From contig WVXK01000062.1 in the NCBI GenBank assembly GCA_011773515.1, positions 164,928 to 228,927 of the forward strand: a stretch of DNA of 64,000 nucleotides. The letters run 5' to 3'. The DNA is from Deltaproteobacteria bacterium (lineage in GTDB: Bacteria; Desulfobacterota; Deferrimicrobia; J040). Position numbers and translations under genes: made by a program. Shown here piece by piece: positions 4,509 through 55,428 of this stretch (the first letter of the stretch is position 1; each line of letters starts with the position of its first letter). A model generated the notes under the pieces. That model saw only the letters and a program-made list of their open reading frames with translations, did not search any database and was not told the DNA's origin.

Positions 4509-6362
4509 TCAACCCGTGTAACCGACCACGAGTTTCATTCCTGGCCGTATGACCTCGCTTTTCAGGCCGTTCATCTTCTTGAGCTCCGCGATTGAGATAC
4601 CGAAGGCCCTGGCTATTGAATAGAGGGAGTTACCCGATTTGACGGTGTAGACCTTTTTGCCGCTTTTGACCGCATAGGTATAGAGGTTCCTGCTTTTGCC
4701 TTGCGCAATTTCCGCCGGCTTCCCGTAGACCCTTATCGTCAGCTTCTGGCCGGGCCTGATTACATTTCCCTCGAGACCATTCAGCCTCTTCAAGGTCGCG
4801 ATGGGGACCCCGAACCGGCGTGAAATCTCATAGAGACTGTCCCCTCTCTTGACCAGGTAGATTTTCCTGTTGCCCTGCCGGTAGACGTAATAGTACCTCG
4901 CACTCCTCTCGAGATTTGAAACAACGTATTTCAGCGATTTTTGATCCGCCGGTTTCAGCGAAGCGGCAAATTCGTTTTCCGTCTCACCCACGATCGGTAT
5001 TATGAGCCTCTTTCTCCCCCCGATCAGGTTGCTTCTCAGTCCATTGACCTCTTTGATTCTGAAAACATCTGCAGAGTACTTTTTGGCTATCCTACCGATA
5101 TTGTCTTTCGACTTTATCCGGTGAAGCACGAGCTTGACCTTCCCCCTCCTGCTTATCTCCTCCCTGTTTTCCTCCACATGTTTCTTGCTCCCCCCGGGCA
5201 ACCTGATCGTGTAAGAGCTGAAATTAGGCGGGACCACCCCCCGCCTGATCCCGGGATTGAGGAGCGTGACCTCTTCATAATCAACGCCGATGATATCGGC
5301 AAGCGTTCTCAGGTCAATCCCGCCGGGGACCTCGACGGTATCAAACTCGAGAGGTTCATCCATTTCCAGGTTATCGAACCCGTAACTTTCCGGATCCTTT
5401 ACCACGGTCAGGGCCGCGAGCATCTTCGGAACGTAATTTTTTGTCTCCCGGGGAAGATATCTGTATTTAACCAGCTTCCAGTAATCATTGGTTCGATACC
5501 TTCGTATCGCACGGTCGATCTTGCCCTCACCCACATTGTACGCAGCGGCGGCAAGATACCACGACCCGAACATATCGTAGAGGCTCTTCAGGTACCGCGC
5601 TGCGGCCCGGGTGGAACGCTCGAAATCTCTCCTCTCATCGTCCCACCAGTTGATATCGAGACCGTACTTTTTCCCCGTCCAGTACATGAACTGCCAAATC
5701 CCGATTGCGCCGGCGCGTGACACCGCCCTCGGGGAAAAGCCACTCTCTATCATGGCAAGATACACAAAATCTCCCGGCACCCCTTCCGCCCTGAGAATCT
5801 TCCTCATGAGCATGTCATACCTCCCGAACCGCCTATACCACTCGGTGAAATGGGGACGGGCCCGTGTCTGAAAATATCTGATGGCATACTCAACCCTCTT
5901 GTTCAGGTCAACGGGGAGGGGTATGTCCTCTTCCTCCTCATATAAATCCTCTGGGGACTCCGCCACGATCTCCTCATCCATATTGCTCTCGATCTTTCCT
6001 TCTGCGCCGGGAGCATTGTCACCCTCCCGGGTCAGTGCGGGGAAACCGCAGGCACCTTTTTCACCCCGAAACGCAGGTCCGCCCCTTGAGGCTGCGATTC
6101 CGGAGACGAAAGACTCAGGTGGACTCGCGGGGGTGGAAAAAGCGTGCTCAACAGATATGCCGGCTTCCTTGAAAAGGAAAGAGCCCATCCCGCAGTAACT
6201 GGAATGTGCCCACCGGGGATTCAATAAAATGGCGAGGCCAAGGGCCAGGGATGCCGCTATGATCCTCTTTGCAAACGTTGCTCCCACAAACCCCCCGAAG
6301 ACGCTTTTATCATCAAATGCCTGCAACAAGGCGGATATTGCCGGGGAAAACAGGCCCGTCAA
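4509..6362 (-). CDS. mltD: Membrane-bound lytic murein transglycosylase D-like (SLT domain plus two C-terminal LysM repeats)
   Basis: SLT catalytic motif LAMIESGF...AIGIWQFM, two LysM repeats (YLVKRGDSLYEISRRFGV..., YTVKSGNSLYSIARAFGI...) and an N-terminal hydrophobic anchor. Confidence 0.8.
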   Translation of the reverse strand: MTGLFSPAISALLQAFDDKSVFGGFVGATFAKRIIAASLALGLAILLNPRWAHSSYCGMGSFLFKEAGISVEHAFSTPASPPESFVSGIAASRGGPAFRGEKGACGFPALTREGDNAPGAEGKIESNMDEEIVAESPEDLYEEEEDIPLPVDLNKRVEYAIRYFQTRARPHFTEWYRRFGRYDMLMRKILRAEGVPGDFVYLAMIESGFSPRAVSRAGAIGIWQFMYWTGKKYGLDINWWDDERRDFERSTRAAARYLKSLYDMFGSWYLAAAAYNVGEGKIDRAIRRYRTNDYWKLVKYRYLPRETKNYVPKMLAALTVVKDPESYGFDNLEMDEPLEFDTVEVPGGIDLRTLADIIGVDYEEVTLLNPGIRRGVVPPNFSSYTIRLPGGSKKHVEENREEISRRGKVKLVLHRIKSKDNIGRIAKKYSADVFRIKEVNGLRSNLIGGRKRLIIPIVGETENEFAASLKPADQKSLKYVVSNLERSARYYYVYRQGNRKIYLVKRGDSLYEISRRFGVPIATLKRLNGLEGNVIRPGQKLTIRVYGKPAEIAQGKSRNLYTYAVKSGKKVYTVKSGNSLYSIARAFGISIAELKKMNGLKSEVIRPGMKLVVGYTG

Positions 6363-46913: not shown

Positions 46914-48527
46914 TCACTGAGCTTTAGAAGGATCAGCTGACGCAATGGCTGCCGCGTCGCCAGTTGACTTGTCGTGTAAGAAACCACGCCCTTTCATATC
47001 TTCCTTGATTCTCGCTTTGAGAATTTTCCCCTGGCTGTTTCTCGGCAGACTCTCGGTGTACTCGATGGAAGCGGGGACCTTGAAAGGCGCCATATTGCTC
47101 CTGGCATATGCGAGAATCTCGCTCTTTTCGATGGTAGCCCCCTCTTTGAGCACGACTATCGCCACCGGCACCTCACCACATTCGTAATCGGGTTTTGAGA
47201 TGACCGAAACATCATCGACGGCTCCGTGTTCTAAGAGTATCTCCTCGACTTCAGCGGGATCAACGGGGACTCCTCCCCTGATTATGATATCCCGCAGCCT
47301 GTCGATGACGTAAATATAGCCACCCTCATCAATCGAAGCTATGTGACCGGTGTAAAGCCAGCCATTTTTAACTTTCTCCGCGGTAAGATAGGGGTCATTG
47401 TAATAACCTTTCATAACGGTGGGTCCCCTGACTGCAAGCTCTCCCACCATGTTCGGCACGATTTCCACCCCCGAAGAATCGATGACCTTTACGCGAATCC
47501 CGACCGCCTCCTTGCCGATCGAGGAAAGCCTCCTCAAACCAACAGCGTCGTCCCTCCCCATTTCTTCGTTTACGTTGAGGAAACTTATGTTCCCCGACGA
47601 TTCAACCTGTGCAAAGGACTGGACGAAGCCACAATGAAATATCGACATCGCTTCTTTGAGAAGTAAGGGGTCTACCGGGATGATACCGCTGTAGGAAATC
47701 TTTTTCAGAGAAGAGATGTCGTGTTTACCTTTTCTCGCCTCGGAGGCGAGTTGTGCCATCATCTGCGGAACGAGGAGCAGCTGCGTAACGCGATGCTTCT
47801 CAATGAGCTTCAGTGCCAGTTCCGGCTCAAAAATCCTCATGATTACCACTTTTGCGCCGGGGAGGAAAAACTTCATCATCCTCCCCGCACCGGCAAGGAA
47901 GGGGAGCGAAGCCGTTGACAGGTACACATCACTGCGTGAGATGTTCAGTTCCAGTGCGGAGAAGTAAGAGGCGCACATAAGATTTCTGTGGGTGAGCTGC
48001 GCCCCTTTGGGGTTTTTCCCGATTGACCCTGCATAAGAGATAAACGCCACATCGCTTTCATCCAAAAAATCTCCTGCGGCGCCGCTTCGGTACCCCCTCC
48101 CCATGAGGGCAGCCAGGGGAGGATAGCCGGACACATCCCCGTCTATACAAACCAATTTCTCCAGGTAAGGGCAATATTCCTTTATTGCATCTACCGAGTC
48201 CACGAACTTTTTTTCAAAGAAAAGGAACCTCGGTTCAAGGTCCTGCAAGATCCGGATCAGTTCCGGGGGCAAGAGGAAAAAGTTGAGCGGGGAAGTGATC
48301 GCCCCCATTCCCGCAAGCGCAAACAGTATCTCCACGTACCGGGGGGAATTCCGGGTGAGAACCGCCACGGGTTCGCCTCTCCGGACCCCCATCTCACGGA
48401 AGAGAGCGGTTAAATAATCCACCCTCTTTTTCAGCTGCCTGTATGTCAGCACCTCATCGTCGCAGACGACCGCCTCTTTTTCGGGAAAAACACGGGCATT
48501 GTGTTCGAGGATATCTCCTACTAGCAC
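46914..48527 (-). CDS. AMP-dependent synthetase/ligase (acyl-CoA synthetase family)
   Basis: 537 aa with AMP-binding core motifs (YSGSIGKNPKG-like region, GELAVRGPTVMKGY, GWLYTGHIASIDEGGYIYVIDR). Confidence 0.85.
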   Translation of the reverse strand: MLVGDILEHNARVFPEKEAVVCDDEVLTYRQLKKRVDYLTALFREMGVRRGEPVAVLTRNSPRYVEILFALAGMGAITSPLNFFLLPPELIRILQDLEPRFLFFEKKFVDSVDAIKEYCPYLEKLVCIDGDVSGYPPLAALMGRGYRSGAAGDFLDESDVAFISYAGSIGKNPKGAQLTHRNLMCASYFSALELNISRSDVYLSTASLPFLAGAGRMMKFFLPGAKVVIMRIFEPELALKLIEKHRVTQLLLVPQMMAQLASEARKGKHDISSLKKISYSGIIPVDPLLLKEAMSIFHCGFVQSFAQVESSGNISFLNVNEEMGRDDAVGLRRLSSIGKEAVGIRVKVIDSSGVEIVPNMVGELAVRGPTVMKGYYNDPYLTAEKVKNGWLYTGHIASIDEGGYIYVIDRLRDIIIRGGVPVDPAEVEEILLEHGAVDDVSVISKPDYECGEVPVAIVVLKEGATIEKSEILAYARSNMAPFKVPASIEYTESLPRNSQGKILKARIKEDMKGRGFLHDKSTGDAAAIASADPSKAQ

Positions 48528-48955: not shown

Positions 48956-51091
48956 TCAACCCCTCGAAGAGAGAAGGAAAGACATTGCAAGGACGAAGAG
49001 CGACAAGGCACCGATTACGAGGGAACCCACCGCCACGCCGCAGAGGGGAAGAAGGAATGAAGCGCCGGTGAAGGCGGCCGATGCCGAACCGGCAAGGTCA
49101 AGGGCATAGGCGCGGCTGTAGGAACCCAGGCGGTGACCCGATCCGGCAAAAAGCCCCCCTCCGCCCGATCCCGTGACAAAAAGGGCAAAGTAAAAGAGCG
49201 GGGACGGGGGAACACCGTTTTGCCCTCCGAAGACCCACAATACGAGTATGGCCGAAAGCACCGTCCCCGCGAGCATGGCGAAAGAAGCTTTCTTTACGCT
49301 TCCGAGGACCCCGGAAGACCCCGCTGCGAGCCCCACCATGTAGGAGCAGAAAAGAAGACCGATGTGGGTGTACACGCTGCCGAAAGCCATCTGAAAGGCA
49401 AATATGAGGGATACCTCAACGAGTATCCCCAGGGCTCCGGAGAAAAAGAGTATCGCCTGGGCAAAGCCTCTTCCCAGCAGGGCCGTGGTGCCGAAAAAAA
49501 AGAGGGCGTAAAACATAAGAAAGGAAAGCAAAATCATGGCAGGGGAAATCTTGAAAAGCCTGACGATCGCCCTGTCGGCAATGTCTGGGTGCTGGGAAAA
49601 AACCGAGGAGAGCCCGTGGATTACCGGGAGTTGGTCGAAGATTCCCCCGCCACCCCTTCCGGTCAGAAGTGACCGAGCCCATGCCTCCCGTTTGCCATCC
49701 ATCCGGAATGGGACTATCTCCGGGACGAAGTAGACGTTTTTCAAATGCCTTGACCGTAACCGGCCCGCCACCACGTCGAAATCTGCCTTATCGACCGGAA
49801 GGGAGGGTGAAGCGATAAAAGAAAACTCATCACCGGGGATAATGCGAAGGGCGCCGAAAGACCCGAGCATGGCGGAATGAAGAAAATCCAGGATATGGAC
49901 GTAATCATCGCCGAGGTAGTCCCCGCCGAAGGGAAGTCTTACGAACAAGATGCCCGTCTTTGCGAGAGCTCCGGAAAGGTTCCTGTAAAAGGATGCCCGC
50001 AATGTCCGGAGCGAAGAGAGGGTTACAGGCAACCCCGGCGCCTGGATGATGACGTCGTACTCTCTTCCCCCCCCGTTGAAAAAGCGCACCGGATCCTCGG
50101 GAACATACACTTCTGCGAGACCCTTGCCACCGATCTGGGCAATGACACTCTCGGCGTGCAGGAAGTCAGCGTCGATTACGGACACGCTCACGTCCCCATA
50201 TTTTTCACACTCCCGGACAAGTGGCAGAAGGCTGGCGCCTATCAGGAGAAAGCGGCGAGGCGTCTTTCCAAACGATGCCGGGAAGTGGACCATCTCCTCG
50301 GAAAAAACAGGGTCCCCGGAAACGAACTCCCTCTTTAAATTGGCATAGAATGTTTTCTGTTCCCCATCAGTGGTCACGTCAAACCTTCCCGTCAGAGTCT
50401 GTCTGTAATGGGTGTGTTCGAACCCGCGAAAAGACCAGGCAGAGGTGAGGGAATCGATATAGCGCGAACAAAGAAGCAAAGCAAGTGACGCAAGCAGCAG
50501 CAGAAAAGGGGAGACAAGGGAGAGCTCCACCCCATTCAGAACGCGGCGGACGAGGATAATTGCCGCTGCGCTCGAGAGAAGACAGACGGAAAGAAAAAAA
50601 TAGGGGCCCGCCTCGATGCAATATGGAATGAGGGAGAGCACACCCGCAATCGATGCGCCGATGGCCTCATAGAAAAAGACGCTGCTCTTCCCGGCCCGGG
50701 GGTCGTCAGTGAGCGAGAGTTGCCGAAAGAGCATGCCACCGGCAAGGGAGGGAAGGAGGAGGGGAACGGAGGTGACGAGGAGAACGAGGTCAAACGGTGG
50801 CGCCTCACCCGGCAAGATTCCCACGATGACACGCGCCCCGCGGGTAAACAAAACGCCCAGCAGCGCGAGAAGGGGAATGGCGAAGGCGAGAGCTTCGATC
50901 AGCCTCCATGAAGGCCTCACGCCCTCCCGGAAGGAAAGGGCGCCGGCACCGCCGGAGAGCAGCCACAGGCCCAGCCCCATACCGTAGACCACCTCGTTCC
51001 CACCGCACTGGGAAAAAACTTCTCTCAGGATAACGACCTGCGACAGGAGCGTTGAAAAGCCCAGGAGAATGGAAAACAGGGCAGTTTTCAT
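48956..51091 (-). CDS. Polytopic membrane protein with a central spermidine/spermine synthase-like domain flanked by N- and C-terminal multi-TM regions
   Basis: About 7 TM helices, then an aminopropyltransferase-like fold (FLLIGASLLPLVRE...VIDADF...DVIIQAPGLP) with a degenerate GGGDGG motif, then ~6 more TM helices. Its ATG overlaps the rSAM stop. Confidence 0.6.
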   Translation of the reverse strand: MKTALFSILLGFSTLLSQVVILREVFSQCGGNEVVYGMGLGLWLLSGGAGALSFREGVRPSWRLIEALAFAIPLLALLGVLFTRGARVIVGILPGEAPPFDLVLLVTSVPLLLPSLAGGMLFRQLSLTDDPRAGKSSVFFYEAIGASIAGVLSLIPYCIEAGPYFFLSVCLLSSAAAIILVRRVLNGVELSLVSPFLLLLASLALLLCSRYIDSLTSAWSFRGFEHTHYRQTLTGRFDVTTDGEQKTFYANLKREFVSGDPVFSEEMVHFPASFGKTPRRFLLIGASLLPLVRECEKYGDVSVSVIDADFLHAESVIAQIGGKGLAEVYVPEDPVRFFNGGGREYDVIIQAPGLPVTLSSLRTLRASFYRNLSGALAKTGILFVRLPFGGDYLGDDYVHILDFLHSAMLGSFGALRIIPGDEFSFIASPSLPVDKADFDVVAGRLRSRHLKNVYFVPEIVPFRMDGKREAWARSLLTGRGGGGIFDQLPVIHGLSSVFSQHPDIADRAIVRLFKISPAMILLSFLMFYALFFFGTTALLGRGFAQAILFFSGALGILVEVSLIFAFQMAFGSVYTHIGLLFCSYMVGLAAGSSGVLGSVKKASFAMLAGTVLSAILVLWVFGGQNGVPPSPLFYFALFVTGSGGGGLFAGSGHRLGSYSRAYALDLAGSASAAFTGASFLLPLCGVAVGSLVIGALSLFVLAMSFLLSSRG

Positions 51092-52245
51092 GCCTTCTTT
51101 TCGAATATACCCTCGATTTTTTCACCACAGTGGGCGCACTTTCCATTCTGAACGTGATTTTCACCAATGAAATAGACCAGACGGGAAATTACCCTTTTCC
51201 CGCACCGGGGGCAGTAGGTGTGCTCTCCCGGATCTCCCGGGACATTCCCCACGTAAACATACTTGAGGCCCGCATCGATGCATACCTCCCTCAACCTTCT
51301 CAGGGTAGACACGGGCGTGGGTGGTAGGTCTCTCAAAAGGTACTGGGGATAGAAGCGTGAAAGGTGGAGAGGCACATGTGCCCCCAGCTCTTTTTCTATC
51401 CAGACCGCCATTTTTTTTAACAGATCGGGGTCATCGTTGAGGGTGGGAACCACGAGATAGACGATCTCCAGCCATGTGCCCGAGGAGGCAATGCTTACGA
51501 GCCCATCGAGAACGGGCTTCAACTCGCCACGGACTATCTTTTTGTAATACTCCTCTTCGAAGGCCTTCAGATCAACCTTTACCGCGAGGACCTTTGACAA
51601 GAGCTCCTTCAGCGGTTTTTCCTGAATGTATCCGGCCGTTACGACAATGCTGTCCACTCCCGCCTCGTTGCCGGCAACGGCACAGTCGTACATGTACTCG
51701 TAAAACACGACGGGTTCGCTGTAGGTATACGCTATGGTCATACAGCCGGATTCCTTCGCCCTCCTTACGATATCTTCCGGAGAGAGACGATAGTTTCGCG
51801 TCTGTTCGGGCCTTGACTGGGAAATCTCCCAGTTCTGGCAAAACTTGCAGTTGACGTTGCACCCGGCTGTGGCCATTGAAAAGGCCCTGCTTGCCGGGTA
51901 GACGTGAAAGAAGGGCTTTTTCTCGATGGGGTCGACATGGACGGTACAGGGCCGGGAATGGATGAGGGTCATATATTTCCCCGCCCTGTTTTCCCGCACC
52001 CCGCAGTAACCCCTTTCCCTGTCGCCGACGAGACACTTCCGGGGACAGAGAAGGCACTCGATTTCGAGCCCCTGTTTCCTTTCGTAATATTTCGCCTCTC
52101 TATCCGATAGATCAGAAGACAGGGAAAAGGCAATGGCGTCGCCCGTTGCTGCCGCCATCCTCCTTAAGGACTCCGGGCGGGGGACGATCAGAGAGGCGGC
52201 ACAGGTCCCGCATGCGGTGAAAAACTGTCTCCTCGATATTTTCAC
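51088..52245 (-). CDS. AmmeMemoRadiSam-system radical SAM enzyme with an N-terminal twin-arginine-like leader
   Basis: CNVNCKFC CxxxCxxC motif, family-typical ECLLCPRKC N-region and C-terminal CPRCG...CAHCG. N-terminus MKISRRQFFTACGTCAASL matches the Tat S-R-R-x-F-F pattern. An alternative start at Met-30 is possible. Confidence 0.7.
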   Translation of the reverse strand: MKISRRQFFTACGTCAASLIVPRPESLRRMAAATGDAIAFSLSSDLSDREAKYYERKQGLEIECLLCPRKCLVGDRERGYCGVRENRAGKYMTLIHSRPCTVHVDPIEKKPFFHVYPASRAFSMATAGCNVNCKFCQNWEISQSRPEQTRNYRLSPEDIVRRAKESGCMTIAYTYSEPVVFYEYMYDCAVAGNEAGVDSIVVTAGYIQEKPLKELLSKVLAVKVDLKAFEEEYYKKIVRGELKPVLDGLVSIASSGTWLEIVYLVVPTLNDDPDLLKKMAVWIEKELGAHVPLHLSRFYPQYLLRDLPPTPVSTLRRLREVCIDAGLKYVYVGNVPGDPGEHTYCPRCGKRVISRLVYFIGENHVQNGKCAHCGEKIEGIFEKKA

Positions 52246-53147
52246 AATCCCACCACCTCCCTCACGGTTTCCACACCTTCACCGGCCACTCCGAGTTCAT
52301 ACGGCGGAAGGGCGGCATCGAATATGTACTGGGGAAACCGTTTCTCTTCCCGCAGGGAGGGAAGCCCTCTCGACCTGCGGAGCTCTTCGAGTTTCTCGTA
52401 GCCGGCTTGGTCGAGCGAAACGGGATCCTCGGCTACATACAGAACACGGCCCTCCTCCCTCCACCTGGCGTTGAAGGAGGGACCGCCGTTGCACTGGACG
52501 AAAGTTCCATCCAGGATTGAGAGGACAACCCTGTTTTTGACCACCGGGGCACTGAAGAGGTCCAGTATGTAGGGGGTGCAGCCGTTCATATGATACTTGT
52601 TCGGGTTGTGGATCGCCCCGAAAAAGTTTTTCATCGTCCCCGTGTAACCGCAGAGAATGTGATCCTTGAGAACGGGAACGCTTATGACGAAATCGCTCAT
52701 CCTGGTGAGGATCCTGGAGAGGAGGCTTCCCACCTCGCCGTTGACCGTGAGTTTACTTTCATAGCCAACGCCGTAGGTGTCCGTCCCAAAACACCTGATC
52801 CCGGAGGAGCTGTAATTCAATCTGAACCCGGCCCGGACCAGCTCATCATTCTGCCTGTCCCATACGGTAACGTTGCTTTCGGAGAGCCCCGCCTGCACCA
52901 GCAGATCGGCGATTCCGTACGCCACTGCCATCCTCGTCTGTATACCGGGCACTCCGAGACAATTTACCTTGATGGAAACTCTCGCCCTCTTTCCGAAGCG
53001 GGATGCCAGATACTTTTTCCACCCCATTCCGGAGAGCATTTCCAGCCCTCTTTTCAAAGCAACCGACATGTCCCGGGGATCATAGGAAGCTGCCTTTTTG
53101 GGGCTCTTGACGCTGATTTCCGCAACTCTGGATCCCATGTCATTCAC
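52242..53147 (-). CDS. DUF362 domain protein
   Basis: KVNCLG and LKDHILCGYTGTMKNFFGAIHNP match the PF04015 core (KPN...KtH...G.T...KN.FG). Overlaps both neighbours by 4 nt. Confidence 0.65.
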   Translation of the reverse strand: MNDMGSRVAEISVKSPKKAASYDPRDMSVALKRGLEMLSGMGWKKYLASRFGKRARVSIKVNCLGVPGIQTRMAVAYGIADLLVQAGLSESNVTVWDRQNDELVRAGFRLNYSSSGIRCFGTDTYGVGYESKLTVNGEVGSLLSRILTRMSDFVISVPVLKDHILCGYTGTMKNFFGAIHNPNKYHMNGCTPYILDLFSAPVVKNRVVLSILDGTFVQCNGGPSFNARWREEGRVLYVAEDPVSLDQAGYEKLEELRRSRGLPSLREEKRFPQYIFDAALPPYELGVAGEGVETVREVVGL

Positions 53148-54658
53148 CGGTTCTCATCATCACCGAATACTTCCGCCTCGAAGGAATAAATGTCAACTTC
53201 CTTTTTCCAGGCAAGGGAGGGAAGCCCCGCCTTGACACAGGTCTGGGAGAGAAACGTTTCGACGTCCCATCCGTTTTTTACTGCCACCTGCGGAAGAAGC
53301 AGACCCCTTTTGTGCCCTCTCGAGACCATGAGGCCGTGCCTGCCCACCTCAATGCCCGATATATCCTCAACCTTTTCAAGCGGAGTGAGCACGGATATCT
53401 CGACACGTATGCTCGCAAGTTCCGGGGGTGTGAGCGGCGGAAACCGTGGATCCTCAGTAGCGGATGAGACGGCGCACTCCATGATCGTCCGGTAGAGGGG
53501 ATAGTGAGCCTTCGTGTACCCTATGCAACCCCGGAGTTTTCCCCCTTTCTCTATCGTGACGAATGCCGCGCCGGGGGCTTTCAATTTCTCGCTCGAAACC
53601 TCGACATCGGGAATATTCCCCATTTGAACGAACTCGTTGATGGTTTTCCTGGCTATTGCGAGGAGTTCCCTTTTCTCGCCTTCGCTCAGGTAACCGGTGC
53701 CGCCAAGTTCCCCTTCCTTCATCGTTCCCCTCCTTTGGGAAGTCTTCTCACCACTTTTCAGTGCGATCGCCGATACATAGCCAACCACCGATGCGGTATC
53801 TCCCGTTGCATCCCCGGAATCTGCGTACCCCGTGATGTATACCGACGCGGCTCCCAGCCTTTTCCACAGCATGAGTGCCAGCACCGACGCGGCGCCTCCG
53901 CATGCCTCACACTTCCCTTCCTTGAGATCACGGATGAGCCCGCCGTCGTCTAGATCCTGCACCCTTTTCCTGAACACGCCATCGAGGACTTCCCCCGCGC
54001 TCCGGCTCTTGTAATGTGAGAGGTCAGTGCTCGCCACGACGAGGACCCTTCTCCCCCGTACCGCGCTGAAAATAGCGTCGGCTACCTTTTCCAGCAGGCT
54101 CCTCTCGATCGCGTTCACTTCGATGGGAACGAAGGAAAAGTCACCGAGAGCTACCTGAAGAAAGGGAAGCTGCACTTCGAGGGAGTGCTCCCTCACAAAG
54201 AGCGCGGGGGAACTTTCAAACAGGCCGGGAGAGCGGGATTGGATATCGCGAGCAGCGCGGCTGTCGATGTTCACCAGCCCGAGGGGGGTCCTGAATGCTC
54301 CCTCGAGCATGATCGCGGCCCTTTGCACGCGAAGGAAGTGGCTGGGCCCCAGTAAAACGACGAGGTCATAGCGGTTTCCCCTTATCTCCCTGTAGGCCCT
54401 CGCGGCAGTCCTCCCGGAGTAGACGTATCCCGCATGGGGAGCGATAATACCGGCAATCCTCTTGCTCTGCAGGGGAACCTCTTTACCCTCCTCCATGAGG
54501 CCCTGTATCATACCGTTCAGTTCTTGCGCATCGGAGGGATAAAAAGAGCCGGCCCAGGCGGGCTCCCTCACGGAAGCACCTTCCGCAGGAAGGGGGTAAT
54601 GGAGGGTTACACAAAACGACAGGACAAAAACTGCGGCCAATGTCCCCGCCCTCGCCAT
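53144..54658 (-). CDS. Memo-like (AmmeMemoRadiSam protein B) - AMMECR1 (protein A) fusion with N-terminal Sec signal peptide
   Basis: Signal peptide MARAGTLAAVFVLSFCVTL...AEGA, Memo motifs IIAPHAGYVYSG and DLSHY, C-terminal AMMECR1 GAAFVTIEKGGKLRGCIG...LLLPQVA. AGGAGG RBS before the ATG at 54658. Confidence 0.7.
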   Translation of the reverse strand: MARAGTLAAVFVLSFCVTLHYPLPAEGASVREPAWAGSFYPSDAQELNGMIQGLMEEGKEVPLQSKRIAGIIAPHAGYVYSGRTAARAYREIRGNRYDLVVLLGPSHFLRVQRAAIMLEGAFRTPLGLVNIDSRAARDIQSRSPGLFESSPALFVREHSLEVQLPFLQVALGDFSFVPIEVNAIERSLLEKVADAIFSAVRGRRVLVVASTDLSHYKSRSAGEVLDGVFRKRVQDLDDGGLIRDLKEGKCEACGGAASVLALMLWKRLGAASVYITGYADSGDATGDTASVVGYVSAIALKSGEKTSQRRGTMKEGELGGTGYLSEGEKRELLAIARKTINEFVQMGNIPDVEVSSEKLKAPGAAFVTIEKGGKLRGCIGYTKAHYPLYRTIMECAVSSATEDPRFPPLTPPELASIRVEISVLTPLEKVEDISGIEVGRHGLMVSRGHKRGLLLPQVAVKNGWDVETFLSQTCVKAGLPSLAWKKEVDIYSFEAEVFGDDENR

Positions 54659-54816
54659 GGCAACTCCTCCTATGAGGAAATTCCCCATTGGTTCAAGCAT
54701 CAGTATATTATATATTGCCAACAGGGCCATGGATACCTCGCTGGACTCTTTAACGGGATCGCCCACGGACTGGGGGAAGGTCACCTTGCTTCATCCCGTC
54801 AAAGGGGGAGGAGATA

Positions 54817-55428
54817 ATGAGAGCAAAAGCCTCTTTCACCCTCGCTTTTATCTTTTTAACGGCAACTTTCTGCGTCGGAAATTCCACCGCCTCGTCGAAC
54901 AGGTTTTTTGACTTCTCTTCGGGGAGAAACACCGCCGGCTTCTTCACCTCTTTCGCAGACGATTTTTCCTACTATTTCGGCCAGGTGAGAACAAAGCCGG
55001 CCGGCACCTTTGAGGTGGGACTCAAAGGAGGGGCAGTGGAGATAAAAAAAGGCAGGAACGAGGGGACCGGCGCATATCTGGGGGTGGACGGAAATGTGCG
55101 GATCTTCGGTTTCGAGGGCTCTTTCCCCTTCGACCTCTACCTGGCAACCGGCTTTTCGAGCATACTGAAGTCGCGGCGGGCCCTGAACGAGTTCTTCATA
55201 GGGCCCGTAGGCGAGAAGACTCTCACCTCTGCCACCGCTCTGGTTATTCGGGGAACCCTCGGCATGGAGGTGGCCGCGCGAGGGGGTTCTCTCACTGACG
55301 ACGATGACCTGGATCTCTTTATCACCCCGGGTCTCGTTTTCAATATCGGGGATTCAGCAAACATATTCCTGGAGCTGAAAGCCGGAACGGACACTGCTGC
55401 TGGCATAGGGATAAACTTTTCCTTCTGA
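54817..55428 (+). CDS. Small outer-membrane beta-barrel protein (OmpW/OmpA-like, hypothetical)
   Basis: Signal peptide, alternating hydrophobic beta-strands, C-terminal aromatic residue (…GINFSF). Confidence 0.55.
   Translation: MRAKASFTLAFIFLTATFCVGNSTASSNRFFDFSSGRNTAGFFTSFADDFSYYFGQVRTKPAGTFEVGLKGGAVEIKKGRNEGTGAYLGVDGNVRIFGFEGSFPFDLYLATGFSSILKSRRALNEFFIGPVGEKTLTSATALVIRGTLGMEVAARGGSLTDDDDLDLFITPGLVFNIGDSANIFLELKAGTDTAAGIGINFSF

Follow-up and report, generated by a model that had tools for sequence, protein, structure and literature searches.

The window, a 64,000-nt stretch of contig WVXK01000062.1 (assembly GCA_011773515.1, forward-strand positions 164,928 to 228,927) from a Deltaproteobacteria bacterium (GTDB lineage Bacteria; Desulfobacterota; Deferrimicrobia; J040), carries a four-gene operon for what is probably a variant of the poorly understood AmmeMemoRadiSam system with its seat in the cell envelope. 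The operon lies on the minus strand (54658..48956) and runs from a Memo-AMMECR1 fusion through a DUF362 gene and a radical SAM enzyme (rSAM) to a polytopic membrane protein. The AmmeMemoRadiSam components are encoded on one strand with 4-bp gene overlaps, DUF362 being the single gene between them, and the gene order is kept in the loci L086 and L087. The leaders of the fusion and the rSAM, on which a first-pass annotation had based its proposal of export, are indeed present in the sequence where it had placed them. Comparative evidence favours export of the system over an untranslated leader: the leaders, the topology of the membrane protein, the twin-arginine leaders of DUF362 proteins and the existence of one-chain fusions all agree on which side of the membrane the system would lie. 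DUF362 and the polytopic membrane protein had not figured in the first-pass annotation.

Memo-AMMECR1 fusion and its Sec-type signal

The fusion gene (53144..54658, minus strand) encodes a single 504-aa polypeptide, counted from the ATG at 54658, that combines AmmeMemoRadiSam proteins B and A. The product matched TIGR04336 (Memo-type B) over residues 31-298 with 251.2 bits (cut-off 26) and TIGR04335 (AMMECR1-type A) over residues 331-498 with 190 bits (cut-off 99), as well as the Pfam Memo and AMMECR1 domains. Counted from this start, residue 31 is the first of the Memo domain, and upstream of it lies a predicted Sec-type signal peptide or signal anchor (residues 1-28; 54575..54658, minus strand; MARAGTLAAVFVLSFCVTLHYPLPAEGA). 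Its N-terminus reads MAR followed by GTLAAVFVLSFCVTL, with R3 in the n-region and a strongly hydrophobic h-region, whose 15-residue core scores 2.73 in the best 10-residue Kyte-Doolittle window. Both the longest ORF and the public gene call begin further upstream, at GTG 54784 (546 aa), which masks the signal. The 504-aa start is shared by a 90% identical fusion (P0121). It is preceded by AGGAGG (54666..54671, minus strand) with a 7-nt spacer to the ATG (54658..54656), which supports this start and bears out the ribosome-binding site proposed earlier, and GGAGG stands at the equivalent place in L086 and L087.

The signal had been described as a textbook one. The charged n-region, the hydrophobic h-region and retention in orthologues agree with this description, but the -3/-1 positions depart from the canonical cleavage site (AEGA↓S, with Glu at -3). 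The LSFC sequence has Phe at -1 and hence is not a lipobox. The signal peptide may be an uncleaved anchor. A signal or lipobox was found in most homologues of the fusion, and almost always in the fusions of the 80 closest loci (L001-L080).

Radical SAM enzyme and its twin-arginine leader

The rSAM gene (51088..52245, minus strand) encodes 385 aa and matched TIGR04337 over residues 51-384 with 369.3 bits (cut-off 220). The radical SAM [4Fe-4S] motif CNVNCKFC (51838..51861, minus strand; C129, C133 and C136) is invariant in alignments A1 and A4, as are C64, C67, C71 and C81; C345, C348, C370 and C373 are invariant in A4 and nearly so in A1. The AF2 model has a pLDDT of 87.8, with residues 1-45 modeled at low confidence and apart from the fold. 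The nearest solved fold is that of the PFL-activating enzyme (3cb8; TM 0.80, 18% identity), which was also the sole sequence match in PDB. The two share CxxxCxxC with an aromatic residue, but the window rSAM differs from glycyl-radical activases in its additional N-terminal CxxCxxxC...C and C-terminal CxxC...CxxC motifs and in its predicted export. Assignment as a glycyl-radical enzyme activase was rejected: the rSAM scored far under the cut-offs of the NCBIfam activase models (56.5 vs 231.75 for TIGR02493), no glycyl-radical enzyme gene was found within 10 kb of it, and the resemblance is one of fold alone.

Translation of the rSAM starts at GTG 52245, not at an ATG. This codon overlaps the DUF362 stop (GTGA), downstream of a GGGAGGTGG purine tract, and the N-terminus reads (M)KISRRQFFTACGTCAASLIVPRPESLRRMAAATGDAIAF. 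The predicted twin-arginine signal peptide comprises residues 1-39 (52129..52245, minus strand), with the motif S4-R5-R6-Q7-F8-F9 (52219..52236, minus strand), a weakly hydrophobic core, a basic c-region containing R23, R28 and R29, and a predicted cleavage site AIA↓F, in which AIA represents residues 37-39. The SRRxFF motif with a mildly hydrophobic core noted in the first-pass annotation is thus confirmed as SRRQFF. Among 47 aligned relatives (53-85% identity), R5 and R6 are invariant and F8 is nearly so (consensus RRxFLK), and of the 120 closest homologues, 109 have the RR motif, which exceeds what chance would give. Cleavage had been placed after TGDA; a site after residue 39 is likelier, and A-x-A was found in 87 of 109 relatives, mostly 11 residues upstream of the mature EA[KR]YY motif.

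In the best 10-residue Kyte-Doolittle window, the hydrophobic core of this leader scores 1.92, and the means are 1.74 for rSAM leaders and 3.14 for Memo-AMMECR1 fusion signals; this difference is the one that transport by Tat and Sec, respectively, would predict. The window leader scored 14.5 bits against TIGR01409, about 2 bits short of the cut-off (16.7), and had no Pfam match; the shortfall counts against the envelope model. The leader of the L003 orthologue exceeded the TIGR01409 cut-off (18.0) and scored 20.3 against PF10518 (cut-off 22.7), and a precomputed PF10518 match exists for P0118. The leader diverges faster than the mature part, yet KISRRQFF and AIAF are retained at 85% overall identity. 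Since these elements, the GTG start and the SD-like tract are conserved in orthologues, the leader appears to be translated.

DUF362 protein and 14-helix membrane protein

The DUF362 gene (52242..53147, minus strand) overlaps the fusion stop with its start and the rSAM start with its stop, and its translation is coupled to that of the rSAM. The 301-aa product matched PF04015 with 70.9 bits (cut-off 24) and has no leader. RRxFLK leaders were found on DUF362 orthologues in at least 11 loci and are missing in the window, L003, L007 and L011. The family has conserved Lys, His and Asp residues and no conserved cysteines. DUF362 (PF04015) and the N-terminal domain of LarA belong to one Pfam clan (PMC11770544).

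The polytopic membrane protein (48956..51091, minus strand; 711 aa), whose ATG overlaps the rSAM stop (ATGA), consists of seven transmembrane helices, a soluble domain and seven more helices (AF2 model: pLDDT 84.9, pTM 0.86). Foldseek matched the soluble domain (residues 225-513; 49553..50419, minus strand) to the spermidine synthases 1uir, 3o4f and 2zsu (E=1e-9, target TM 0.68-0.74). Loops on the N-terminal side contain 14 Lys/Arg residues vs 1 on the opposite side, and the means for 23 homologues are 19.3 vs 3.3; the confident model and the positive-inside rule place the domain, by prediction, in the periplasm. Membrane-bound spermidine-synthase-like proteins (PRK03612; "fused MFS/spermidine synthase") likewise combine a polytopic region with a spermidine-synthase fold, but in the window protein the domain is flanked by 7+7 helices and is predicted to face outward. 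Homologues matched PF01564, some of them PF07690 too; for the window protein no Pfam match was found, and its PRK03612 score was 23.7 (cut-off 472). In contrast to spermidine synthases, the whole family has LPxPxT where the catalytic D-S-S-D-P would stand. The nucleotide-binding motifs GGGxxG and ELD are retained in the wider family, and GASLLP stands in place of GGGxxG in the window clade. This degenerate glycine loop counts against an envelope model.

Leaders and neighbours in other genomes

The 80 genome loci closest to the window rSAM represent more than 20 phyla and include two archaeal MAGs. A Tat or Sec-type leader was found on 74 of the 80 rSAMs, about 49 being Tat-RR, 12 Tat-KR and 13 Sec-like, in a tally of regex classes corrected by hand and including the frameshifted L063. 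In 55 of these loci, no more than 7 kb separates the membrane protein gene from the rSAM. Leader-bearing rSAMs are accompanied by Memo-AMMECR1 fusions with a signal, DUF362 proteins with a Tat leader and the 14-helix membrane protein; leaderless rSAMs are as a rule without such partners. Across 155 loci, the membrane protein adjoins 46 of 91 leader-bearing vs 3 of 64 leaderless rSAMs (Fisher p=2e-10) and DUF362 adjoins 24 of 91 vs none of 64 (Fisher p=1e-6), both tests being uncorrected for phylogeny and contig truncation.

The pairing is not uniform. A leaderless rSAM stands beside a signal-bearing fusion in five loci (L037, L064, L078, L139 and L146), and a Tat-type rSAM beside a leaderless separate AMMECR1 in three (L017, L022 and L069); therefore, the components are not always predicted on one side, which counts against the envelope model. 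Plain Sec signals or lipoboxes replace the Tat leader of the rSAM in other lineages, and Sec-type leaders on this Fe-S enzyme were found in Omnitrophota and others. Such leaders would imply extracellular insertion of Fe-S clusters, for which no precedent is known and which counts against the envelope model. A search of the 64-kb window found neither tat genes nor a TatA-like motif, a result that is uninformative for a window covering a part of the genome.

Natural fusions and electron-transfer modules

Several homologues combine the components in single polypeptides. P0279 consists of a signal peptide, Memo, AMMECR1 and rSAM, and P0256 of a transmembrane segment, rSAM, Memo and AMMECR1; in P0244 and P0250, the rSAM is joined to a beta-propeller or CBM domain. 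FMN-binding/NapH-like or DsbD-type modules are fused to rSAM homologues in P0245, P0247, P0277, P0249 and P0261. The first three contain FMN_bind, a NapH-like region, one extra helix and the rSAM, and since the extra helix follows the cytoplasmic CX3CP loop, the rSAM would lie on the FMN (outer) side. A DsbD_2 gene adjoins Sec-type rSAMs. FMN-binding/NapH-like modules have been described as extracytosolic electron-transfer devices in a survey (Meheust et al. 2021, PMC8238504) in which radical SAM, Memo and AMMECR1 go unmentioned. Unlike these homologues fused to NosR- or PceC-type or DsbD-type systems, the window operon has no such module.

Proposed model and alternative explanations

The leader of the rSAM and its conservation suggest that the enzyme would fold and gain its Fe-S clusters in the cytoplasm and then be carried by Tat to the outer face of the membrane, with cleavage after AIA39. 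The fusion, with its own conserved leader, would be exported unfolded by Sec and remain soluble or N-terminally tethered. DUF362, whose RR leader was lost in the window clade, probably exits bound to the rSAM (Tat "hitchhiking"). The membrane protein would present its spermidine-synthase-fold domain on the outer side, where all four proteins could cooperate on an envelope substrate. In relatives, electrons could reach the rSAM through the fused or adjacent transmembrane modules, FMN-binding/NapH-like or DsbD/CcdA-like. SAM might be carried out bound to the folded rSAM, for catalytic or single use, or be supplied via the membrane partner; to our knowledge, SAM is not available outside the cytoplasm, and this counts against the envelope model.

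It is unlikely that the leader is real and translated while the rSAM acts in the cytoplasm, for example on DUF362 or on itself, and is exported as a structural or inert partner. This would solve the problem of SAM and reductant without new biology, and it fits the coupled translation of a DUF362 protein devoid of its own leader, the protein-modifying activases as the nearest folds, and pre-assembled complexes as Tat cargo (PMC10924467). However, the FMN_bind/NapH-like and DsbD_2 fusions of relatives would be pointless unless reduction of the cluster took place outside, the Sec-type leaders of 13 loci would send the rSAM out unfolded before it could act, and Memo-AMMECR1, the defining partner, leaves separately. 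We consider it improbable that the leader is an uncleaved anchor or a vestigial chaperone-binding peptide that leaves the rSAM at the cytoplasmic face with the polytopic protein, and Memo-AMMECR1 alone outside. Vestigial Tat motifs are known in cytoplasmic-facing enzymes such as NarG, SAM and electrons are on hand inside, and in L037, L078, L139 and L146 the rSAM next to a signal-bearing fusion has no leader. Against this stand the complete n-h-c architecture with its conserved A-x-A, the exchange of the leader for Sec signals or lipoboxes, the single-chain fusions that set rSAM, Memo and AMMECR1 behind one signal peptide, the extra helix of the NapH-like fusions, which places the rSAM outside, and the large domain of the membrane partner, predicted on the same side.

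A wrong start call, with an ordinary cytoplasmic AmmeMemoRadiSam enzyme beginning at Met-30 or later, is highly improbable. Codon 30, which had been offered as an alternative start, is an in-frame ATG just after AGGAGG, and the upstream start is a GTG. But this AGGAGG abuts the ATG without a spacer and its letters are the codons of R28 and R29; Met-30 is absent from orthologues of 85% and 81% identity, in which residues 1-9 and A-x-A are kept, and P0002 and P0003 have K-L and K-V at this position. Across phyla the RR motif does not vary, the GTG shares letters with the stop of the preceding gene as at the other junctions of the operon, and orthologues carry leaders and do not begin at the equivalent of Met-30. 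Export of the rSAM to the envelope is the preferred reading.

Relation to known systems

The window shares with the canonical AmmeMemoRadiSam system the co-located genes, scores above the curated cut-offs of TIGR04335, TIGR04336 and TIGR04337, and the rSAM cysteine motifs common to leaderless members. Canonical rSAMs, about half of 150 cluster representatives, are about 335 aa long, have no leader and have AMMECR1 and Memo, if at all, as separate neighbouring genes devoid of signals, whereas in the window no part of the system is without a signal for export or membrane insertion, its own or an inherited one. The Memo-AMMECR1-rSAM association has been discussed by Burroughs et al. 2019 (JBC 294:10211), as cited in PMC7159879. 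Our literature search found no published account of an envelope-located AmmeMemoRadiSam variant and no radical SAM enzyme with a twin-arginine (Tat) signal or a periplasmic location. As in Tat hitchhiker complexes (hydrogenase small and large subunits, DmsAB), the RR leader is on the cofactor subunit and a leaderless partner is encoded alongside; some lineages retain the leader of this partner, others have lost it. We know of no radical SAM enzyme among Tat substrates.

An exported rSAM is unexpected because radical SAM enzymes require SAM and low-potential electrons. We tentatively suggest, as a possibility rather than the expected outcome, that radical SAM chemistry could take place outside the cytoplasmic membrane in a system that is widespread in bacteria and archaea and has its own supply lines. 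FMN-binding/NapH-like or DsbD/CcdA-like modules might provide electrons across the membrane, the outward SAM-fold domain of the 14-helix partner might deliver or hold SAM or a SAM-derived group, and lineages with Sec leaders may insert Fe-S clusters outside.

Operon organization

The operon consists of four minus-strand ORFs linked by 4-bp start/stop overlaps (GTGA, GTGA, and ATGA). They encode the Memo-AMMECR1 fusion (54658..53144, 504 aa; TIGR04336, 251 bits, and TIGR04335, 190 bits), a DUF362 protein (53147..52242, 301 aa; PF04015, 70.9 bits), the AmmeMemoRadiSam radical SAM enzyme, hereafter rSAM (52245..51088, 385 aa; TIGR04337, 369 bits against a cut-off of 220), and a polytopic membrane protein (51091..48956, 711 aa) with no Pfam match and weak similarity to PRK03612. 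All criteria tested place the operon within the AmmeMemoRadiSam system, and its sequence identifies it as a variant with predicted export or membrane signals on all parts and two extra proteins apparently recruited. The same gene order was present in two related loci, L086 and L087, with rSAM enzymes 85% and 68% identical to that of the window, respectively. Scanning the operon for promoters and terminators gave results no better than chance.

Divergent from the operon lies a 203-aa ORF (54817-55428, plus strand) that looks like a small outer-membrane beta-barrel: its product begins with a signal peptide and ends in ...GINFSF. It occupies the same position in L085 and L086 and had no match in Pfam or NCBIfam. 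On the 3' side, the window contains an AMP-binding (acyl-CoA synthetase-like) gene (46914-48527, minus strand), also found in L087 (7438-8973), followed in both by HTH-cupin and phosphoglucomutase genes; this is an observation of synteny only.

Leader peptide of the radical SAM enzyme

The rSAM gene starts at GTG 52245, which overlaps the DUF362 stop codon and is preceded by a GGGAGGTGG tract; this GTG and the Shine-Dalgarno-like tract were kept in three loci. Residues 1-39 have a complete Tat layout, comprising SRRQFF, a 12-residue mildly hydrophobic core TACGTCAASLIV, and a c-region with Arg23, Arg28, and Arg29, then AIA/F. The TIGR04337 alignment begins only at residue 51. In the AF2 model, high confidence sets in at about residue 48, and the leader is a detached low-confidence helix plus coil. 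TIGR01409 scored 14.5 bits on this leader (cut-off 16.7) and 18.0 bits on an orthologous one.

The RR motif was found in 109 of the 120 closest rSAM homologues (53-100% identity), from Zixibacteria, Acidobacteria, Aminicenantes, KSB1, Armatimonadetes, and others. Among these 109 sequences, 87 contained A-x-A, usually 11 residues ahead of the mature EA[KR]YY motif. R5 and R6 were invariant and F8 nearly so in an alignment of 47 sequences. One homologue, P0092, was dropped as a close relative without a leader since its sequence is cut by the contig end. Comparison with L086 revealed 13 non-synonymous changes in the 39 leader codons and 42 in the remaining 346, while KISRRQFF, the hydrophobic core, and AIAF were preserved; the faster change of the leader corresponds to ordinary signal-peptide drift.

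The first-pass annotation had proposed that both AmmeMemoRadiSam components are exported, the fusion via Sec and rSAM via Tat, or else that Met-30 is the true rSAM start. The twin-arginine leader was borne out by its conservation. Met-30 was ruled out as the start: it is not conserved, and its apparent ribosome-binding site has no spacer. The AGGAGG directly abutting Met-30 (52156-52164, minus strand) is formed by the codons of Arg28 and Arg29 in the leader c-region, which is the likely reason why Met-30 resembled an alternative start. Because relatives carry the leader and Met-30 is not conserved, the comparison did not return the leaderless orthologues beginning at this methionine that would argue against export.

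Signal peptide of the Memo-AMMECR1 fusion

The fusion starts at ATG 54658, 7 nt after an AGGAGG (54671..54666). Its N-terminus from this codon is MARAGTLAAVFVLSFCVTLHYPLPAEGA, and the Memo domain follows from residue 31. In the public record, as in the longest ORF, the gene begins at GTG 54784, 42 codons upstream (54659-54784, minus strand), giving a protein of 546 aa; the signal is therefore buried and invisible to annotation-based predictors. The ATG start is backed by the homologue P0121 (90% identical) and by L086 and L087, all of which have equivalent signals. The signal peptide behind AGGAGG noted in the first pass stands. Its cleavage site is non-canonical (Glu at -3), and the peptide may serve as an anchor. 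Many orthologues are lipoproteins; this was ruled out for the window's fusion because LSFC is not a lipobox.

Nearly all Memo-AMMECR1 fusions in the 80 closest rSAM loci had a signal or lipobox. Fusions that seemed signal-less were discarded as a control group, as in P0131 and P0170 an in-frame signal peptide that gene calling overlooked lies upstream of the annotated start (at 7930-8001 in L081, and upstream of the fusion gene in L082 and L083). These fusions also contain, precisely where the mature protein begins, an internal Met with a GGAGG-like site of its own, and they have no adjoining rSAM; the start may have been mis-called, or initiation may be dual and yield exported and cytoplasmic forms. 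Public start calls mask the signal on many Memo-AMMECR1 genes.

Distribution of leaders among relatives

The relatives compared were all MAG or metagenome sequences, with start sites picked by rule. Of 150 family representatives at 50% identity, 76 had no leader, 31 a clear RR leader, about 10 a hydrophobic or degenerate leader, and 13 an N-terminal fusion. The 80 species-level loci nearest to the window's rSAM were analyzed with purpose-built HMMs, and regex leader calls were corrected by hand. About 49 loci encoded a Tat-RR leader, 12 (mostly Bacteroidales) a KR variant (KREF[LIV]K), and 13 (mostly Omnitrophota, Elusimicrobia, and Planctomycetes) a plain Sec signal or lipobox, and 6 had no leader. 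These counts include L063, rejected as leaderless because a frameshift at about 5130-5430 separates a hydrophobic transmembrane leader and the EAKYY motif from the remainder of the gene; the break may reflect misassembly or a pseudogene.

Five loci (L033, 3457-4515; L036, 5270-6322; L045, 2933-4096; L066, 10059-11261; and L107) contain a second radical SAM gene, unrelated and activase-like, which carries an RR leader of its own and lies divergently beside rSAM. The adjoining rSAM had a KR leader, except for an RR leader in L066. No NCBIfam model matched this second gene above cut-off.

Genes associated with leader-bearing enzymes

Unbiased ORF clustering within 7 kb of rSAM in the 80 loci identified the membrane protein as the commonest neighbour (55/80), followed by the fusion (42) and DUF362 (20). 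A control metagenome scan seeded with leaderless rSAMs yielded 58 leaderless genes, and neither DUF362 nor the membrane protein was found near any of them; AMMECR1 or Memo genes, where adjacent, were separate and lacked a signal. Across 155 loci, the membrane protein neighboured 46/91 leader-bearing versus 3/64 leaderless enzymes (Fisher p=2e-10) and DUF362 24/91 versus 0/64 (p=1e-6), these tests being descriptive because phylogeny and contig truncation were ignored.

Among the 80 loci, DUF362 mostly had its own RRxFLK leader, which was missing in the window, L003, L007, and L011. Conserved positions in the protein include Lys, His, and Asp but no cysteines, so a role as Fe-S electron donor was rejected. 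No sequence relative was found in the PDB. DUF362 and the LarA N-terminal domain belong to the same Pfam clan (PMC11770544). A DUF6599 lipoprotein-like gene was located upstream of DUF362 in six loci, mostly of Acidobacteriota (L001, L007, L011, L012, L015, and L016).

A DsbD_2/CcdA-like membrane protein (PF13386) was encoded just downstream of rSAM or the fusion in eight loci (L026, L030, L035, L040, L042, L044, L060, and L080). It was almost exclusive to Sec-type rSAM leaders (7/13 versus 1/60, p=8e-6), although these loci are phylogenetically clustered, and suggests a possible source of thiols or electrons for an enzyme that crosses the membrane unfolded.

Predicted membrane topology and domain fusions

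The membrane protein gave a confident AF2 model (pLDDT 84.9, pTM 0.86) in which a soluble alpha/beta domain (residues 225-513) separates two sets of seven helices. Its alternating loops contain 14 versus 1 Lys/Arg residues in the window, with means of 19.3 versus 3.3 in 23 homologues, which predicts an external soluble domain and two cytoplasmic termini. This domain has a spermidine-synthase fold (49553-50419, minus strand). The GGGxxG of the wider family is replaced by GASLLP in the window's clade (with P0391-P0393), where nucleotide binding may have been lost; loss of the glycine loop weakens the case for SAM binding by the domain in this organism.

Several homologues combine rSAM with other modules in one chain. 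P0279 consists of a signal peptide, Memo, AMMECR1, and rSAM, and P0256 of an N-terminal hydrophobic helix, rSAM, Memo, and AMMECR1. In P0244 and P0250, a signal precedes a beta-propeller or carbohydrate-binding-like domain and rSAM. In P0245, P0247, and P0277, rSAM follows an FMN-binding domain, a NapH/NosR-like CX3CP membrane module, and one extra helix. Lys/Arg-rich loops of P0245 (6, 3, 7, and 6) alternate with poor ones (0 and 2); these charges place the CX3CP loops on the inner side and predict that rSAM is outside, together with the FMN-binding domain. A DsbD_2/CcdA-like protein was fused to rSAM in P0249, P0261, and P0277. FMN-binding/NapH-like modules deliver electrons to extracytosolic enzymes, and the flavinylation survey describing this does not include fusions of rSAM to these and/or DsbD_2 modules (PMC8238504).

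Proposed mechanism and significance

From leader anatomy and conservation, co-variation with partner genes, fusion architectures, and the topology predicted for the membrane protein, the following model can be proposed. The rSAM enzyme would receive its clusters in the cytoplasm and be exported folded by Tat, while the fusion would be exported via Sec. DUF362 would be a passenger exported with rSAM, being leaderless only in the clade with translational coupling between the two. All four proteins would come together on the external side of the membrane. Fused electron-transfer modules are a plausible source of reductant in relatives; the window's operon contains no such module. SAM could be carried out bound to folded rSAM and used as a regenerated cofactor, could support a single turnover, or could be delivered via the 14-helix partner, whose family keeps nucleotide-binding motifs, the glycine loop being absent from the window's clade.

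Some observations are harder to reconcile with the model. Leaderless rSAM accompanies a signal-bearing fusion in L037, L064, L078, L139, and L146, with stop-interrupted remnants upstream in L037 and L078, and a Tat-type rSAM accompanies a separate leaderless AMMECR1 in L017, L022, and L069. If the enzyme, with its roughly 15 conserved cysteines, leaves through a Sec-type leader, its clusters would be assembled extracellularly, something without known precedent. A TatA search within the 64-kb window found nothing and is uninformative.

The closest solved fold to rSAM is the PFL-activating enzyme (TM 0.80), but the window's enzyme fails activase family models. In the HXS system it is the substrate of radical SAM enzymes that is exported by Tat or Sec, and its authors could not place those enzymes; it is a different case. 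The AmmeMemoRadiSam literature found mentions the system only in passing, and neither an exported radical SAM enzyme nor this variant is described in the literature searched. An earlier mention is possible in Burroughs et al. 2019, reportedly an in-depth analysis of Memo-AMMECR1-rSAM contexts. The leader of the homologue P0118 is already detectable by a TAT-signal model scan and hence open to anyone scanning these proteins.

Radical SAM enzymes are taken to be confined to the cytoplasm, given their dependence on SAM, a low-potential reductant, and oxygen-sensitive Fe-S clusters. If true, the existence of a conserved clade that spans several phyla and bears Tat or Sec leaders would overturn this view, and the case is strengthened by the predicted co-export of partners and by the transmembrane modules for electron transfer that are fused to some of the enzymes. 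It would also imply a new SAM route into the cell envelope or a SAM-sparing mechanism there. Memo and AMMECR1 both have human disease-linked homologues; for the function of these families, the variant points towards a substrate in the membrane or envelope.
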